IMG/VR virus record: IMGVR_UViG_3300020156_000448
Location: 1-64,000 of that record
Reading direction: 5' to 3' (one strand)
Length of the DNA: 64,000 nt
Source of the DNA: a virus
In this document: positions 3,139 to 22,109 of the stretch, in pieces
Layout: each line of letters opens with the position of its first letter
How positions within the stretch are numbered: the stretch's first letter is position 1
The notes under the pieces: generated by a model
The model's input: only the letters and a program-made list of their open reading frames with translations
Database searches by the model: none
What the model was told of the DNA's origin: nothing
Position numbers and translations under genes: made by a program

Positions 3139-3272
3139 GACCCCTGTATTTATACTCGTTGACATGATCCCAGTAAGGTTCGATGATATTTGTTGTTCCT
3201 TAAATGAATATAATCGAATGTCGATTGTTTTTATGTTACACCCTCATCATATCCTGTTGGAGACCATTACGT

Positions 3273-4028
3273 ATGGCTGAAGTATCCGATTTACAAACCA
3301 CCACCCTAGTAACGAGAGGTTTTAAGAACCAGATCGTTGAGCAGTTGGGAGAATCCTTTGAAGAGCAGGCAGGGCTTTCTACAGATGCTGCTACTGAAGA
3401 AGACCAGTCTCTTGCTGCAATCATCCCAGTAGACCCCAAAGAGACAGAGCTTCTGGCTCTCGCCCAGCACGGCGACGATGAAGCCCTTACAGTAGTTTGG
3501 AAACTATACGAAGAGAAAATCTTCAATGCAGCGCTACGAATTCTCCGCGATTATGATGAAGCTGAGAATGTAGCCCAAGATGTATTTATTAAGTTTAAGA
3601 ACAACATCCATACATTCCAACTGGGTAAGTCGCCACTACCTTGGCTGAACCGTATTTGCAAAAACCATTGTATAAATATACTTAACCGCGCTCGTCGTCA
3701 CCCAATTAACTTGGTGGGATCAATTAGCGGTGATGATGCAGTCAACCAGGATTCTGAAACCTCTCAGTATTATGAGGCAGAGGATACGAGCACGCCATCT
3801 CCATTTGAAATTCTTTCAAAGCGCGAAGATATCGCCAATCTACGTCAGGCAATCACCCGCCTCCACAAAGATTTCCGCGACATCATTTACCTGCACTATA
3901 CTGAGGAATTACCATACAAGGTAATTGCTGAAAGATTAAACATCCCAATCGGCACAGTAATGAGTCGGTTATTCAATGCAAAAGCTAAGCTACGTGAGGA
4001 ATTTAAGAAGGTTGAAGCAGGGGTGTAA
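3273..4028 (+). CDS. ECF-type sigma-70 factor
   Basis: Region 2 (AENVAQDVFIK, WLNRICKNHCIN) and region 4 HTH (YKVIAERLNIPIGTVMSRLFNAK); GGAG RBS before ATG 3273; acidic N-terminal extension. Confidence 0.92.
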   Translation: MAEVSDLQTTTLVTRGFKNQIVEQLGESFEEQAGLSTDAATEEDQSLAAIIPVDPKETELLALAQHGDDEALTVVWKLYEEKIFNAALRILRDYDEAENVAQDVFIKFKNNIHTFQLGKSPLPWLNRICKNHCINILNRARRHPINLVGSISGDDAVNQDSETSQYYEAEDTSTPSPFEILSKREDIANLRQAITRLHKDFRDIIYLHYTEELPYKVIAERLNIPIGTVMSRLFNAKAKLREEFKKVEAGV

Positions 4029-14979: not shown

Positions 14980-15064
14980 TGATGATTTTCTCTTTAGAAT
15001 TACTTCTCTTGGCTATACACGCTGTCTCAGGTTTTATTCTAAGACAAATTTTATCCTATAAATA

Positions 15065-15095
15065 GAAAAAGAACTCCCCACTAGGGAGAGTTCTG
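15065..15095 (-). terminator. Intrinsic terminator downstream of the leader-tag array
   Basis: AGAACTC-CCC/GGA-GAGTTCT stem; A tract on plus = U tract on minus. Confidence 0.7.
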
Positions 15096-15179
15096 ATTTT
15101 TTCAAAAATCGAATCACCTATCGAACATTTATAATATTGTAATAACGGACGTTTTATACGATTACTTGATTTTATTATA

Positions 15180-15270
15180 GATACAGGCAACTAGTTAAAC
15201 GTAAAAATATTTTAAACGGGCAATCTTTATTAACGGGAAAATGATATTCTAAATGTCAAACGGGCAAACG
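15180..15270. repeat. Degenerate 17-bp-period repeats (AAACGGGCAA core)
   Basis: Core C at 15200, 15217, 15234, plus a further copy at 15261; AT-rich flank. Confidence 0.55.
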
Positions 15271-15369
15271 TACTGCTCCTGAACTGCGCGCTAGTCAGGG
15301 ATCGGCTATTCTAGACTAACCTCTCACGCTCTATATACATCATTATAATTTAATTTTCCTTTAAAGAAA

Positions 15370-15624
15370 TTATCTATAAATGGGGAAACCTGCATAATTA
15401 CCCATAGAGAAAGAATCACTACTTGTATTGTTTGTCGTAATAGTATAACCTGTCGATGTTGCGGTAATAGTATAGCCTGTAGATGCTGGTACATCTTCAG
15501 TATAACTCCAAGTATTGCGAATGCCGTATTTTTTGTCCATATCTCTAATATAGTCAACGGCGCTCTTTTTCGTAAAGACGACTCTGGCTGTTTGATTCGT
15601 ATTAATTAAGTCTTTAAGATTCAT
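15370..15624 (-). CDS. Leader-tag family protein
   Basis: Starts MNLKDLINTNQTARVVFTKK (GAGG RBS); internal 27-nt duplication STGYTITAT/STGYTITTN. Confidence 0.7.
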   Translation of the reverse strand: MNLKDLINTNQTARVVFTKKSAVDYIRDMDKKYGIRNTWSYTEDVPASTGYTITATSTGYTITTNNTSSDSFSMGNYAGFPIYR

Positions 15625-15907
15625 ATTTTTTGCCTCGTCTATAGTATTTAGAAAACGCTGGCTCAAGCCCACTAGTAGTTGTAGACATTGATTGCATAAG
15701 TACTTGTCTAGATGATGGCGCTGTTGCAGTTAAAGTCTTTCCTGCTCCTCGTCCAATCCTTAGTTCTGCCTGTTTATAAGTAACATCTTTAGCAAACAAA
15801 TCTCCATACATAGCTTTATAGTAATCTCTGAATGAATCTTCGTCACTGCGTTGCTTAACAAAGATAAACTTTACCGAATGATTTTCCACCAAATCTTTAA
15901 TTAGCAT
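15614..15907 (-). CDS. Leader-tag family protein with terminase-like and RNR-like fragments
   Basis: Leader MLIKDLVENHSVKFIFVKQ; then LRIGRGAGKT and TAPSS...TTSGLEPAFSKYYRR. Confidence 0.7.
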   Translation of the reverse strand: MLIKDLVENHSVKFIFVKQRSDEDSFRDYYKAMYGDLFAKDVTYKQAELRIGRGAGKTLTATAPSSRQVLMQSMSTTTSGLEPAFSKYYRRGKKYES

Positions 15908-15969
15908 CTCTGCTTCCTCTGATAGAGCCAACTACTTTATTGGTTCGCTTGCAGACAATATCTCCATTG

Positions 15970-16332
15970 TCATTTAAAAGATGGTTTCCCCAATTTGTCG
16001 TTAAATTCTCTTTGGTATCTCTCGTGCCAAGAAATCGGGGTCGCGGTGTTGCGGCGTCTGGCATTCCTCTCTTGCCTTCTCTTTCTTTTAAGTCTTTCTT
16101 TTCGGCGGTCCTCGACACCCTTAGACAGATTTTGCGGATGCAGAGGCACATGTATATATTGAGATTTTGCTGAATGTTTTTCGATCAAAGTAAATAAATA
16201 ATTCAAAGTCTTTGTGCTTAAATTTGCATAATCGGTATCTATGTCAGGAGGGTAATCAAGCGAATGCCAAATATCTTGTTTCTCAAAAATAATCTTTAAG
16301 TGATTATTGGTTATAGCGCTCTTAAGATTCAT
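15970..16332 (-). CDS. Leader-tag family protein with Arg-rich tail
   Basis: Leader MNLKSAITNNHLKIIFEKQ. Confidence 0.65.
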   Translation of the reverse strand: MNLKSAITNNHLKIIFEKQDIWHSLDYPPDIDTDYANLSTKTLNYLFTLIEKHSAKSQYIHVPLHPQNLSKGVEDRRKERLKRKRRQERNARRRNTATPISWHERYQREFNDKLGKPSFK

Positions 16333-16598
16333 ACGTAATCCATACCACTTGATAATTCGTGTACCTTAATCACTGCCATTATCATAAACCGCCATTTGAT
16401 ATCTTGGTCTTTAGCTGACTCTGCATACATTCTGGCGTGTACCGAATCGCCCTTCATTAAACATTGTATGCATTTATAAGCAGTCTCTACACTCTCTTGA
16501 TCGATATCATCGTCTTCTTCTACTAGAAGATTATAGCCTTGAATTGCTTGTTCGATGACCTTTTGGATCGATCTTTTAATTTCAACGTTCATGAACAC
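16329..16598 (-). CDS. Hypothetical helical protein (no leader motif)
   Basis: 89-aa ORF; ATGA overlap. Confidence 0.55.
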   Translation of the reverse strand: MFMNVEIKRSIQKVIEQAIQGYNLLVEEDDDIDQESVETAYKCIQCLMKGDSVHARMYAESAKDQDIKWRFMIMAVIKVHELSSGMDYV

Positions 16599-16661
16599 CT
16601 GCTACTGTTTTAATCCCGCAGAACCCCTAAAACTAGGTAAAACTTGGGTATACTTTAACTA

Positions 16662-16913
16662 CTATTTAATCAAGGCATTATTCGAAACGCTCTTATTTAT
16701 TATTTCTCTACAACTAGGGCATAGATAATCTGTGCCAATTAGACGAAACTCGTAACCGTCTTTAAGCCGACATCCGAAGCAAGGAATCTTGCTAAACTTA
16801 ATCTGTATACAATGACCTTTCATCACTGTTTCAAGCGGCTGCTTATTTAGGCTCATATGTGAAATGGCAGGTTTTTGAAACTTTTTAGCGATACGTGTTA
16901 ATAGTGATTTCAT
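16662..16913 (-). CDS. Leader-tag family protein with C4 zinc finger
   Basis: Internal PLETVMKGHCIQIKFSK followed by CFGC...CPSC. Confidence 0.6.
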   Translation of the reverse strand: MKSLLTRIAKKFQKPAISHMSLNKQPLETVMKGHCIQIKFSKIPCFGCRLKDGYEFRLIGTDYLCPSCREIINKSVSNNALIK

Positions 16914-16914
16914 C

Positions 16915-17202
16915 TTAATAATCATTCAATGCGTCAGGATAATTTTCTTTAAACCATTCTTGCAACTCTTTGGCATCGGCGTGGTTATCATCTAGCAGAA
17001 ACCTATACATATACCTACATAAGGAAACGCTAAAGCGCACATCTTCTGGCTTAGAAAGAACAGGGACTTTTCGATCAAAGTTCTTTAAAAATTTACCAAC
17101 AGTTTCATAGGTCTTCCAGAAGTGAGCCTCTAAATGCCAGCCCTCTTTAGTAAAGATAACTCTTACTGACCTATGAGCATAATTTTTAATACTATTTGCC
17201 AT
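16915..17202 (-). CDS. Leader-tag family protein
   Basis: Leader MANSIKNYAHRSVRVIFTKE. Confidence 0.65.
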   Translation of the reverse strand: MANSIKNYAHRSVRVIFTKEGWHLEAHFWKTYETVGKFLKNFDRKVPVLSKPEDVRFSVSLCRYMYRFLLDDNHADAKELQEWFKENYPDALNDY

Positions 17203-17440
17203 TAAAGTATATGTTCCTCAGTATTTCTTCATCCTCAGTTTGTTGGATTGAACGCTTAGCATTTATTTGCGCTCTATCTACTATATAAAACCGCCTTGCC
17301 TTAATTTCACTTAGGCTAATTTGAGGATTTGCACCGATTTGAAAAGTCGGAACAAGGAAAGTGCCTTCAGGCTGTTCTTTAGTAAAGACAAAATGTATGG
17401 AATGGCTTTGCAATATCTGCAAAAAGTTGTTGCTTAACAT
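17192..17440 (-). CDS. Leader-tag family protein carrying a major-capsid-protein-like fragment
   Basis: Leader FLQILQSHSIHFVFTKE, then VPTFQIGANPQISLSEIKARRFYIVDRAQINAKRSIQQTEDEEI, which I recall as resembling HK97-fold capsid proteins of large phages. Confidence 0.7.
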   Translation of the reverse strand: MLSNNFLQILQSHSIHFVFTKEQPEGTFLVPTFQIGANPQISLSEIKARRFYIVDRAQINAKRSIQQTEDEEILRNIYFNGK

Positions 17441-17453
17441 GTGTTACATTTTC

Positions 17454-17506
17454 CTAAATAAAAAAGCTTATATACATGTATATCTTGTATATAAGCTTTT
17501 ATTTAG
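17454..17506. terminator. Long AT-rich inverted repeat (terminator/regulatory hairpin)
   Basis: AAAAGCTTATATACA-N9-TGTATATAAGCTTTT, extendable by CTAAAT/ATTTAG. Confidence 0.65.
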
Positions 17507-17513
17507 AAAAATT

Positions 17514-18233
17514 TTAATCTAGTGGAGAAATAGTAACAACTTCTTTTAGTAGGTCGAAATACTCATCTGATCCTAAGGCTGGAAAATCTGCTTCTCTCCC
17601 CTGCGATTGCCATAATTTTAATAACTCATCATCTAATGCAAGCCTTAAAATATCTACCGCCAACGCGGTATAGTGCTGGATTATCTTCGCGTCTTTTTTA
17701 TCAAACTCCATCTCATCTAGCTTGAATGAAAGAACTTCATAAGCGCATCTTACAACCTCTTCGTCTAAATGGAGATTATCAGGATGGCTGCGCGGCGGAC
17801 CTGTGAGCCGAATAAAATGATTCATTTGGTCATGAGCATAATTCAGCCTCTCAATGCTCTCTTTTTCTGAGAGAGGAATAGAGGGACCATCCACCACTAA
17901 ATCCTTCTCAAAGACAGCATATCCATCTTCAAAATTTCTAAAGATAATGGCTTTCGTCTTAGTCAGGCGGTAATCCCGATTTAGGTACATAAATATGCCT
18001 TTCGTAAATAGTGTATTACGAAGACATTCTTTAACCTTTGCGTCTCGTTCTTGTTTTAGTTTTTGAATCTTCGCTAGCGCAAGCTCAGCAGGCTGCTTGG
18101 GCTTTGGAAGTCCAGGTGGCTCTATAAACGTCACACTTACTTTGTGTGACGCGCAAAGGTTGCGAAGTTTGCCAGTTTGCCTGAATCTGCCGAAGAATCT
18201 CGCTTTGGTAGTCATTATGCCTTTCTCTTTCAT
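17514..18233 (-). CDS. Leader-tag family protein (long form)
   Basis: KLRNLCASHKVSVTFIE near the N-terminus. Confidence 0.65.
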   Translation of the reverse strand: MKEKGIMTTKARFFGRFRQTGKLRNLCASHKVSVTFIEPPGLPKPKQPAELALAKIQKLKQERDAKVKECLRNTLFTKGIFMYLNRDYRLTKTKAIIFRNFEDGYAVFEKDLVVDGPSIPLSEKESIERLNYAHDQMNHFIRLTGPPRSHPDNLHLDEEVVRCAYEVLSFKLDEMEFDKKDAKIIQHYTALAVDILRLALDDELLKLWQSQGREADFPALGSDEYFDLLKEVVTISPLD

Positions 18234-18256
18234 TTAGATACAAGGCAGCTTTTATT

Positions 18257-18637
18257 TTATTCTTCTTTTAATGCGGTATAAGCGCTAATCGCATTCGTTA
18301 ACAGCGCAGTAGCCTCTGCTGAAAAATCATAATCTTTCTGACTCGCTATAAAATGATAAGCCAAGTTGTAAAAGTGCGTTTTAAGAACTTTGCTGTGCTC
18401 TGAATATAAAGAAGAAGCATGAATAATACTCTTTAAATTTTCATCGACAGGAAGTTCAATGGCAGCAAAAAACATGAGTGTCCTATGAATTTCACCATAC
18501 ATAGGAAGAATCATATCGTGATGCCCTGAAATACAGATTATATCCATGCATTGAACATAATTTTCATAAAAATCAGGAGTATACTCTTTAGAAAATATAA
18601 ATTTTACATCACCATTATTGCATAAATCTTTAAGCAC
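18257..18637 (-). CDS. Leader-tag family protein
   Basis: Leader MLKDLCNNGDVKFIFSKE. Confidence 0.65.
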   Translation of the reverse strand: MLKDLCNNGDVKFIFSKEYTPDFYENYVQCMDIICISGHHDMILPMYGEIHRTLMFFAAIELPVDENLKSIIHASSLYSEHSKVLKTHFYNLAYHFIASQKDYDFSAEATALLTNAISAYTALKEE

Positions 18638-18972
18638 TATATATCCATACCAAATGAATCGTTAATAGCATCGTCCAACTCGTCATCTTCCGCAAAGATA
18701 ATACTAAGCTCTTCTTCCGTAAGATCGGAATTTCTAAGCTCATAGATAGTTGATGCAGGAATAAGGGAATCTGGCATGTCTTTCTCACTGCGCTTCATAT
18801 CCCACAGTTCCTTTGCTACTTCTGCTGCTTTCCTATCTTCTTCTGCTGGCATCATGTCGTGGGTATCTGGACTCCACACTGTATCTGTCGTACCATCAGG
18901 AAATGTAATCAAATATTCGTGACCTGTCAAGCCACTTGTTCTACCAGTTCTATTAACTCTTAGCGCCATCAC
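18637..18972 (-). CDS. Acidic hypothetical protein
   Basis: Asp/Glu-rich 111-aa ORF. Confidence 0.6.
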   Translation of the reverse strand: MMALRVNRTGRTSGLTGHEYLITFPDGTTDTVWSPDTHDMMPAEEDRKAAEVAKELWDMKRSEKDMPDSLIPASTIYELRNSDLTEEELSIIFAEDDELDDAINDSFGMDI

Positions 18973-19225
18973 TTGCTGCTTTCAATATTTCCTTAATGCG
19001 AGTAGCCATTTTATCAGAACCAGCTTCCTCAGCGGGTATTGGCTCTACTACGATTTCATCACCACTAACATAGCACTTAAACGAATCGCCCTCTTCAAGC
19101 TGATAATTTCTAAAGGAGTTTTCTTCTACTTCTGAAGTGAATGAATGCCCTGCGCTATCAATAAGCGTGATAATAGCAACATCTTCCTTATATTGCTGCA
19201 AGCAGCCACGAAAACAAAAACTCAT
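18953..19225 (-). CDS. Hypothetical protein (small beta-barrel-like)
   Basis: Likely start MSFCFRG at 19225, which avoids overlap with the upstream gene. Confidence 0.55.
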   Translation of the reverse strand: MSFCFRGCLQQYKEDVAIITLIDSAGHSFTSEVEENSFRNYQLEEGDSFKCYVSGDEIVVEPIPAEEAGSDKMATRIKEILKAASDGAKS

Positions 19226-20086: not shown

Positions 20087-20386
20087 CTATTTCTTTAGCT
20101 TTTCCCACGAATATTTTTCGGAAACATCGCTTAAGAACTCTCGCATATAACTCTTAAGCTCTTGCTTTTCAGCGTCTGTTACTTTTTTGTCGCTGTATTT
20201 TCCAGCCTTTTGATCTTCAAAAGCAGATGCTTTCTCTACACAGTCATCAATATCATTCTTGATTTCTCCATAAGTGAATGAGAATGGACTGCCGACCACA
20301 AGAAAAATCTCTTTAGACTTTTTATTAGCATTGGAAGTTTGCCACATTGTATACCAACGACTAATTCCCCATCTACTATAAGCCAT
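20087..20386 (-). CDS. MAYSRW-family protein, copy 2
   Basis: MAYSRWGISRWY...EKQELKSYMREFLSDV. Confidence 0.7.
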   Translation of the reverse strand: MAYSRWGISRWYTMWQTSNANKKSKEIFLVVGSPFSFTYGEIKNDIDDCVEKASAFEDQKAGKYSDKKVTDAEKQELKSYMREFLSDVSEKYSWEKLKK

Positions 20387-20687
20387 GACGCTTTCCCTTC
20401 TTTGGGAACTCCCGAATGATATCGTCAATAAATTGCTGCATATACGTTCGCAATTCTTCTCTTTCCTCAAAAGAAACAGGGTCAACTACTCCGCATTTTT
20501 TACAAGCTTCATCAAGACAAGCTTCTATATCTTTCACTAGTGCAGGATATTTAAAAGAAACATAATCGTAGTCGCCATTGCTGGCAATTTGGAATGTTTG
20601 CTCATTTTTATGATGAGGCGCAAGTGTATTTCTAGCAGTTGTCTGGTATGTATGCCATCTGCTTTTATCCCATCTGCTATAAGCCAT
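20376..20687 (-). CDS. MAYSRW-family protein, copy 1
   Basis: MAYSRWDKSRWH...EREELRTYMQQFIDDI. Confidence 0.7.
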   Translation of the reverse strand: MAYSRWDKSRWHTYQTTARNTLAPHHKNEQTFQIASNGDYDYVSFKYPALVKDIEACLDEACKKCGVVDPVSFEEREELRTYMQQFIDDIIREFPKKGKRHGL

Positions 20688-20688
20688 A

Positions 20689-21183
20689 TTATTTTCTCAG
20701 TCTCTCTCTGACTTTCATCAGAATTTTACCAAGATGGTTTTCTCCAGAACCATCACCACTACAATAATCCACTTTGTTTCCACCGCAGTAGCAGCATCCG
20801 TAAAAACGGTCATGCCAATAATTGCCCTCTTCAATATATGTGTCTCCAGTACCAACCAAAATATCAGCTAATTCTGGAAAAGTTTCAAATTTTGTCTGAA
20901 CCAGGACTTCCATGTACTGAAGATTTACGTCTTGCCAGTCTGGACGTACCAACCCCGCATCTCGTAATCGAGACCCCTCTTTTTTAGAATCTCCAGCAGA
21001 CATTGCTGCAATTCGCTTGCGTTCTAAATGGTCTGTACTTTTTAGGGCTTGGTACAAAGATTCGGTATTATTGGCTTGAAGAGCTTCAAACCCATCCTCT
21101 GTTATGATCAAAATGCCATTGCATGAATAAAAATTAGAGAAGCATGAATATGCCCCTCTAAAATTTTTAATCTTATCGTCCAT
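20689..21183 (-). CDS. NADAR (YbiA-like) family protein
   Basis: FSNFY, ESLYQALK, RPDW, LVGTGD..IEEGNYWHDRFYG, GENHLGKILMKVRE. Confidence 0.92.
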   Translation of the reverse strand: MDDKIKNFRGAYSCFSNFYSCNGILIITEDGFEALQANNTESLYQALKSTDHLERKRIAAMSAGDSKKEGSRLRDAGLVRPDWQDVNLQYMEVLVQTKFETFPELADILVGTGDTYIEEGNYWHDRFYGCCYCGGNKVDYCSGDGSGENHLGKILMKVRERLRK

Positions 21184-21618: not shown

Positions 21619-22080
21619 TCAATGAGGCGGGTATATTTCTACGGGGATATCCATATGAGATAGATAATCAATCATGATTGGCTCAACTACAGCCCAAGAC
21701 AATCCACCTTTTCCACAACCCAAGGCGGGAATGGCTAAGGAGTCAATTCCCCATGCTTTGTAGGTGGCTAATAAATGTTCCAAGCCTGTACGAATATACG
21801 ATAGACGCGAAGGCTTTCTAAAATCATCTTTAGTAGGAAAATTAAGAATCCAATGAGGATGTGTTGCAGCCACATCAGGCGGCGGTTTATACAGCAGGAC
21901 TTGCCCTGTTCGTATTTCCCCCGCCCGACAGTGACGCTTATAGTCTATGTTATAATGAGGGTAGGCTCTTTGGAATATTAAGGCTATTCCAGCGCCAGAA
22001 GCGCCGAGACAATTCACCGTGTTTGTTATTGTTTGACACTGAGACTTAAACATGTCTCCGTGCATAATTTGTATTGGCAT
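21619..22080 (-). CDS. Macrodomain ADP-ribose hydrolase (DarG/TARG1-like)
   Basis: GDMF, NTVNCLGASGAGIA, NFPTK, SLAIPALGCGKGGLSW. Confidence 0.9.
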   Translation of the reverse strand: MPIQIMHGDMFKSQCQTITNTVNCLGASGAGIALIFQRAYPHYNIDYKRHCRAGEIRTGQVLLYKPPPDVAATHPHWILNFPTKDDFRKPSRLSYIRTGLEHLLATYKAWGIDSLAIPALGCGKGGLSWAVVEPIMIDYLSHMDIPVEIYPPH

Positions 22081-22109
22081 AATACTTTTATTATTATGCA
22101 CAACACATT

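Follow-up and report, generated by a model that had tools for sequence, protein, structure and literature searches.

The stretch of DNA analysed here, referred to as the window, is the first 64 kb of the 125,053-base IMG/VR record IMGVR_UViG_3300020156_000448, which is a large uncultured soil phage, and the system in question is an array of nine tightly packed minus-strand open reading frames (ORFs), o1 to o9, at positions 15370-18637, that lies in a variable, orphan-rich stretch of the phage. Five to six of these translationally coupled genes start with one module that is shared at the protein level, and the tails behind it are dissimilar in sequence as well as in composition. With moderate confidence the array is interpreted as a family of small accessory proteins that is private to this lineage and was expanded in tandem, in which a constant N-terminal module (N-module) would be combined with replaced tails, including one segment of a capsid protein. 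The finding itself is a verified sequence pattern together with one chimera, verified by alignment: the tail of o3, judged by its homologues, is demonstrably foreign to the family and consists of a 47-50-residue segment of a major capsid protein that keeps most of the conserved residues. The array was first noticed in an earlier reading of this DNA (the original prediction), in which eight of the nine ORFs were said to carry a common motif of ~18-20 residues. The ORFs are listed below, with lengths in amino acids (aa):

18257-18637, minus strand: o1, 126 aa, GTG start; N-module from residue 2
17514-18233, minus strand: o2, 239 aa; motif-like stretch at residues 23-38, not N-terminal; doubtful member
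17192-17440, minus strand: o3, 82 aa; N-module at about residues 6-22, plus the capsid segment
16915-17202, minus strand: o4, 95 aa; N-module at residues 5-20; probable member
16662-16925, minus strand: o5, 87 aa; the quoted motif is internal, from residue 31; membership unsupported
16329-16598, minus strand: o6, 89 aa; without the motif
15970-16332, minus strand: o7, 120 aa; N-module from residue 3; Arg/Lys-rich tail
15614-15931, minus strand: o8, 105 aa as listed; probable ATG start at 15907 (97 aa)
15370-15672, minus strand: o9, 100 aa as listed; probable ATG start at 15624 (84 aa)

All eight peptides that had been quoted as copies of the motif were recovered, each in its place, in the minus-strand ORFs. 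A hidden Markov model (HMM) built from all eight leaders gave 20-27 bits to the members and 11 bits to the best non-member; since this test is circular, a leave-one-out run was performed, in which a 45-residue alignment (A2), and also an 18-residue version, was set against about 3,365 non-member segments, the background being the entire record translated in six frames, i.e., 158,439 residues in 3,373 stop-to-stop segments. With A2 the left-out sequence ranked first for o8 (E 6.8e-6), o9 (E 6.5e-5), o1 (E 2.2e-4) and o3 (E 0.045), second for o7 (E 0.33), third for o4 (E 0.79) and 82nd for o2 (E 40), and o5 gave no match. The 18-residue version ranked o1 and o8 first, o3 and o4 second, o9 17th, o7 68th, o2 105th and o5 418th, so that o4 held rank 2-3 across both versions, with E-values of 0.17-0.79. 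When 1000 shuffles were made of each left-out sequence, the real score was reached by none of them for seven members and by 548 for o5; the score of o2 is only 4.8 bits, yet it lies above all 1000 shuffles. In pairwise comparison o7 and o9 match each other with E 1e-4 over 37 residues. The leave-one-out run, the shuffles and this pairwise match taken together place o1, o3, o7, o8 and o9 firmly in the family as far as profile scores can tell, and they make o4 a probable and o2 a doubtful member, with the membership of o5 unsupported. The claim of eight motif-bearing ORFs was thereby narrowed to five firm ones and a probable sixth, and the leader HMM was significant against shuffled sequences and the real genome for most members.

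The core of the module counts about 18 residues and is composed of a short helix followed by a hydrophobic strand that ends in K-E, K-Q or K-K (S/T-K-E in o1, o3 and o4; E-K-Q, V-K-Q or T-K-K in o7, o8 and o9). In the five firm members and the probable one it begins within six residues of the start, when the starts supported by ribosome-binding sites are taken. The o8 start at 15907 is preceded by a GAGGAAG-type ribosome-binding site and the internal ATG of o9 at 15624 by a purine-rich one, and with these starts the module stands at the very beginning of both proteins. HMM and profile searches of the six-frame translation detected no further copy of the module elsewhere in the 125-kb record. 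A complex predicted from the o1 and o8 N-modules scored 0.01 and gave no verdict.

It had been proposed that the codons vary and that conservation is therefore at the level of protein, and this was confirmed: pairwise identity at codon positions 1, 2 and 3 is 0.45, 0.70 and 0.48, respectively, so the second position is the most conserved, and the same codon is used in 58 of 87 identical residue pairs. The extent of the similarity differs between the members. It covers 32 residues between o1 and o8, 29 between o8 and o9, and 37-41 between o7 and o9 (41 being the value without composition correction), and in a further alignment (A3) another, less strongly conserved stretch follows the strand; o3 and o4 resemble the others only up to the end of the strand. 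Hence the motif length first given describes the common core of ~18 residues and falls short of the 29-37 residues over which o1, o7, o8 and o9 remain similar, and for the same reason the statement that the sequences downstream are unrelated is true of the dissimilar tails but not of the stretch directly behind the core in these four proteins (up to 41 residues without the correction). The idea of a modular tag with cargo stood insofar as a constant module is found on dissimilar small proteins and o3 is a true chimera, but there is no fixed junction, the extents ranging from ~18 to 37 residues. Such nested extents of similarity fit duplication that was followed by replacement of the tails at differing points.

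The evidence from the o3 tail comes from several sources. Residues 27-75 of o3 align with positions 123-171 of 318 in the profile phrog_2522, 'major head protein' (E 6.1e-8), and o3 also matches the NCBIfam model NF042927 of the HK97-fold major capsid protein (E 1.1e-6, positions 83-129 of 280), with 27.8 bits against a curated cut-off of 80, i.e., without a full-length family match. Among structures, it matches the capsid protein Gp27 of phage G (PDB 6wkk, E 1.7e-8), to which it corresponds as an internal segment only, in an ungapped alignment of 51-52% identity; tblastn against phage G gave 51% identity (E 3e-7) and the pairwise comparison with the phage G capsid protein 23 identities in 44 positions (E 2e-13). 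The major capsid protein of Tunturiibacter phage Tunturi_5 was matched with E 2e-10. Over 51 aligned columns, o3 shares 23 residues with the phage G protein and 21 with that of Tunturi_5, the two full capsid proteins are identical to each other in 25 columns, and o3 has the same residue in 16 of these. The feature is thus described as follows:

17219-17359, minus strand: capsid part of o3 (residues ~28-74), corresponding by homology to Gp27 residues 88-134 of phage G

The proposal of a capsid-fragment cargo was in this way confirmed independently by PHROGs, NCBIfam, PDB and the GenBank phages. Since 47-49 of the 280-318 family positions are present, o3 by its alignments is a fragment of a capsid protein and not a capsid protein, and a piece of this size is predicted to be one that cannot form a subunit of the capsid shell. 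We take the segment to be the strand that leaves the E-loop and the long spine helix of the HK97 fold. The leader HMM built without o3 scored below zero on the two full capsid proteins tested, which argues for separate origins of the module and the capsid piece; these comparisons show o3 to be a chimera in which the family module is joined to part of an HK97-fold major capsid protein of the phage G type. As the sequence on either side of o3 contains no further capsid remnant, the gene is not a full-length one in decay. A full capsid gene was found neither among 48 further larger ORFs compared with PHROGs nor in a six-frame search of the record with phrog_2522 and the two full capsid proteins; the o3 piece is the only match in the record to the capsid family of the phage G type, and the PHROGs scan of the 48 ORFs identified no head protein besides the terminase.

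One may ask if the whole family derives from a capsid protein, the module strand being the first E-loop strand, o3 the least-changed copy and the other tails copies diverged beyond recognition. BLAST indeed extends the alignment of o3 with the Tunturi_5 capsid protein back to o3 residue 11, and in the MAFFT alignment the module strand falls on the capsid strand ahead of the matched segment, on the correct side and at about the expected distance. Only about five residues carry this extension, however, and two gaps are required for it; in PHROG, NCBIfam and PDB alike the match sets in at o3 residue 27-28, past the module, and the negative scores of the leader HMM on capsid proteins point the same way. 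A capsid descent of the family is thus very improbable, the least probable of the explanations weighed here.

For the lineage-private family with replaced tails, the following origin is proposed. The genes would have arisen by tandem duplication, and the sequence behind the module would have been replaced at varying breakpoints, by illegitimate recombination or by drift. The module would have stayed under common selection for a shared function, most likely the binding of one common partner or address, and the tails would supply differing specificities. The o3 tail would imitate that part of the capsid protein which consists of a strand and the long helix and, as such a mimic, would bind the partners of that part, i.e., neighbouring capsid subunits, assembly factors or a host capsid sensor. 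The binding or addressing role of the module and the specificity of the tails we infer only from the anatomy of the genes.

Several points weigh against this interpretation. The foreign origin is proven for one of eight tails only, and the expression of the array, like the binding by the module, is predicted from sequence alone. Membership is not uniform either, as o4 rests on its rank and not on an E-value, and o2 and o5 may not belong to the family. As described above, MAFFT and BLAST can align the module strand of o3 with the first E-loop strand of capsid proteins, which leaves a small residual probability to a capsid origin of the module itself. Finally, the searches found neither a related phage nor a homologue of o1 or o3, and without relatives it cannot be shown that the tails are under selection, that the array is conserved or that members were gained or lost.

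In a word-indexed set of 5.8 billion proteins and in a full HMMER search of 1.84 billion representatives o1 retrieved only itself, and a word-sharing search of short and long proteins with o3 retrieved itself or nothing. There is accordingly no full-length homologue that covers both leader and cargo, as no homologue at all was found. The module profile A2 matched nothing in phage G, Tunturi_5 or LR745208, where an empty answer shows nothing. The DNA of positions 15000-19000 had no match among 50,697 GenBank phage records, nor did tblastn retrieve a relative of o8 from them, and in the same records the best match of the large terminase of the phage, LR745208.1 from a 485-kb uncultured phage, reaches only ~22% identity. 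The terminase, the 439-aa protein of a neighbouring gene and o2 had no close relatives in IMG/VR, nor had the terminase a close relative in metagenome contigs.

The remaining tails are of differing character: that of o5 contains a CxxC pair, that of o7 is rich in Arg and Lys, and that of o9 includes a tandem repeat rich in Ser and Thr. Apart from o3 and a lone match of o1 to TIGR00024, Pfam, PHROGs, PADLOC and NCBIfam contained nothing above noise for the ORFs of the array. The CxxC...CxxC pattern of o5 matches Pfam zf-4CXXC_R1 with E 0.01, below the curated cut-off, and o2 has no relative in Pfam, PHROG, PDB or IMG/VR. A resemblance of the leader to WYL_2/DUF2693 that had been suggested was not supported, since PF10902 (74 positions, curated cut-off 26.7 bits) matched neither the nine ORFs nor anything in the whole record at E-values up to 10, and the control genomes did match. 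The likeness consisted only of a general pattern, a helix and then a hydrophobic strand that ends in basic and acidic residues, and the tails of the array appear too dissimilar to complete a common barrel.

Residues 4-48 of o1 (18494-18628) match positions 61-106 of 224 in the TIGR00024 phosphoesterase model with 17-19 bits (E 9e-4 in the NCBIfam scan, E 1.9e-4 for the genome), which is the only match to TIGR00024 in the record. It is not common to the other family members, the phosphoesterase-type genes of the phage itself do not match TIGR00024, hhalign detected no match between the module profile and the two metallophosphoesterase-type proteins of the phage, and neither o1 nor profile A3 matched a phosphoesterase in the PDB; the o1-TIGR00024 match is a lone and weak one. 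An EarP-like nature of o1 in the ESM Atlas was rejected as a lead, because the similarity lies below the recognition mark and the proteins matched are EarP fragments.

Two further resemblances to essential phage proteins had been claimed, and both concern o8. The terminase resemblance, of the middle of o8 to the Walker A motif of the terminase ATPase, turned out to be noise (tblastn against the phage's own terminase, E 9.7, 33% over 21 residues). The resemblance to ribonucleotide reductase (RNR) is weak: 14 of 36 residues of o8 are identical to a motif of the phage's own RNR (record 78913-81378, PF02867, E 2.3e-86), but at a genome-wide E-value of 0.08 roughly one in ten such queries would give a match like this by chance, and no library contains a match, as o8 found no RNR in Pfam, PDB or, by tblastn, the phage records. 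The PF02867 search of the record matched only the true RNR (79507-81066).

The original prediction proposed a library of decoys or poisons, in which the module would present captured pieces of essential phage proteins, either to blunt host sensors that recognise capsid or terminase or to disrupt particle assembly in competing phages. Capsid proteins trigger bacterial immune proteins such as CapRel (PMC13728456), which speaks for such a use of capsid pieces. The o3 segment is moreover well preserved, with 16 of the 25 family-invariant columns retained, the o8 tail resembles the most conserved motif of RNR, and the 125-kb record lacks a full capsid gene of the matching type, so that the piece could target another phage. 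Yet only one of eight tails is established as a fragment, the RNR match is weak and the terminase match is noise, and the other six tails match nothing. The record, classed as a provirus, is estimated to be 76% complete, and the huge-phage record closest to it by terminase is also among the best capsid matches, therefore the missing capsid gene is probably of the phage G type as well and lies outside the record. In the literature on capsid decoys and dominant-negative capsid fragments no paper was found that describes a capsid-fragment decoy. On balance a decoy or poison library appears improbable, and the same low probability is given to its more elaborate form, in which the phage would keep a protein-level library of one docking module that displays captured segments (capsid in o3, perhaps the active-site loop of RNR in o8), turns over by new capture and yields mimics of sensor targets or poisons of rival assembly. 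On its alignments, o3 is a clean and intact natural fusion of the module with a conserved capsid segment, which may serve as a test case for capsid pieces as mimics against capsid-sensing immunity or other phages. Whether phages and prophages use such pieces is a question newly raised in the field.

In having one short, constant leader at the N-terminus of small proteins that are otherwise unrelated, the array recalls the internal proteins of T4, likewise a large phage. In the T-even phages, internal proteins with a capsid targeting sequence (CTS) form a diverse and fast-changing set of cargo (PMC3012670). By analogy, the module might be a head-loading tag, with which a changing set of small proteins is loaded into the prohead and delivered with the DNA, the tag perhaps being clipped off. 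The phage is a large one, as its terminase is closest (22%) to that of a 485-kb phage, a protease-like gene (phrog_9683, E 9e-16) adjoins the packaging genes, and the leaders of o1, o3 and o4 end in K-E. The T4 head protease cleaves at the motif hydrophobic-x-Glu. In contrast, a consistent cleavage motif is missing from the array: two leaders end in K-Q and one in K-K, and none of the six has a hydrophobic residue at -3, three positions before the Glu. With 18 to 37 residues and a strand among its elements, the module exceeds the T4 tag in length, and its continuation over 29-37 residues in four members would be odd for a disposable tag. Also the location differs, since the array stands ~39 kb from the terminase gene and beside accessory genes of the NADAR and Macro families, not beside head genes, and the terminase is the only head protein identified in the record. 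The comparison with the T4 CTS was one of description. Head loading is considered unlikely, albeit less so than the other alternatives. Should the module of the family be a shared address or docking element, it would provide a second, unrelated example of 'one tag, many cargos' after the T4 internal proteins, and, if true, such a design in a phage lineage without a cultured relative.

The surroundings of the array resemble the hyperplastic regions of T4-type phages, for which orphan genes shuffled between promoter/stem-loop cassettes, termed PeSLs, are described (PMC2839356). In both cases small orphan genes form a block flanked by conserved modules, duplication is active locally, and stem-loops and a terminator are present. 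Unlike PeSLs, where the repeat is intergenic DNA, the repeated element of the array is coding and is repeated at the protein level, and the array contains no DNA repeat longer than 27 nt. The non-coding elements and the repeat are:

17448-17512, no strand: AT-rich hairpin in the o2-o3 intergenic region, made up of two inverted repeats, one nested in the other, of 15 nt (100% complementarity) and 16 nt (94%)
15432-15485: 27-nt tandem repeat in the o9 tail, two copies, 85% identical, encoding a nine-residue Ser/Thr/Gly/Tyr-rich repeat; the longest DNA repeat in the region
15070-15094, minus strand: intrinsic-terminator-like hairpin downstream of o9, with a 10-bp stem and a T run

The latter hairpin is the probable end of the operon. 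In the ORF-poor gap of ~280 nt between o9 and the terminator there is also a 15-nt direct repeat, of which two copies lie 44 nt apart (15209-15267).

It could further be argued that the array is debris, i.e., decaying duplicates and recombination scars without function, in which the module is merely the least-decayed part. All members are orphans, the o9 tail contains the low-complexity 27-nt repeat and the o3 tail is a fragment of a gene. Structure predictions are of low confidence: AlphaFold2 gave a mean pLDDT of 50.1 for o1 with the paralogue alignment A1 and of 50.0 for o4 alone. Against decay speak nine intact, packed and co-directional ORFs with plausible ribosome-binding sites and overlapping stops and starts (the stop of the upstream ORF overlaps the o1 start by 1 base, the o3 end the o4 start by 11 nt, and the o6 stop and the o7 start share ATGA). 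The codon-position pattern is that of constraint on the protein, the capsid segment keeps both its conserved residues and an open frame, and 3 kb of junk is seldom retained in phage genomes. That the array is debris is therefore judged a poor explanation, on a par with the decoy library.

The genes around the array are, like almost all genes of the record, carried by the minus strand. Those nearest upstream are:

20689-21183 and 21619-22101, minus strand: NADAR-domain protein (PF08719, E 4.5e-21; phrog_1017) and Macro-domain protein (PF01661, E 2.4e-13)
20087-20485 and 20376-20687, minus strand: tandem paralogue pair of full-length appearance, ~100 aa each, with an identical six-residue start

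The NADAR and Macro genes, 2-3 kb upstream of the array, represent two families that act on ADP-ribose adducts, so the neighbourhood may be one of counter-defence, and as accessory enzymes of a type common in counter-defence regions they count in favour of an accessory protein family. Neither ORF of the paralogue pair, the first of which as listed starts upstream at TTG, matches Pfam or PHROGs; the presence of this second set of tandem paralogues 2 kb upstream of the array implies that duplication is active in the region. In the whole window Rfam gave no match at gathering thresholds. Among the sequencing runs that contain the stretch, one DNA run is listed, a soil metagenome that may be the source sample, and no RNA run. 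The phage also encodes an RNA polymerase sigma factor on the plus strand (3204-4028, phrog_1740, E 1.3e-26), which may bear on the transcription of the long run of minus-strand genes. At the right end of the record (114930-121999), a nucleotide-sugar epimerase and several glycosyltransferases are encoded on mixed strands, and these could be a host flank of the 'provirus' or genes of the phage for surface-sugar modification.

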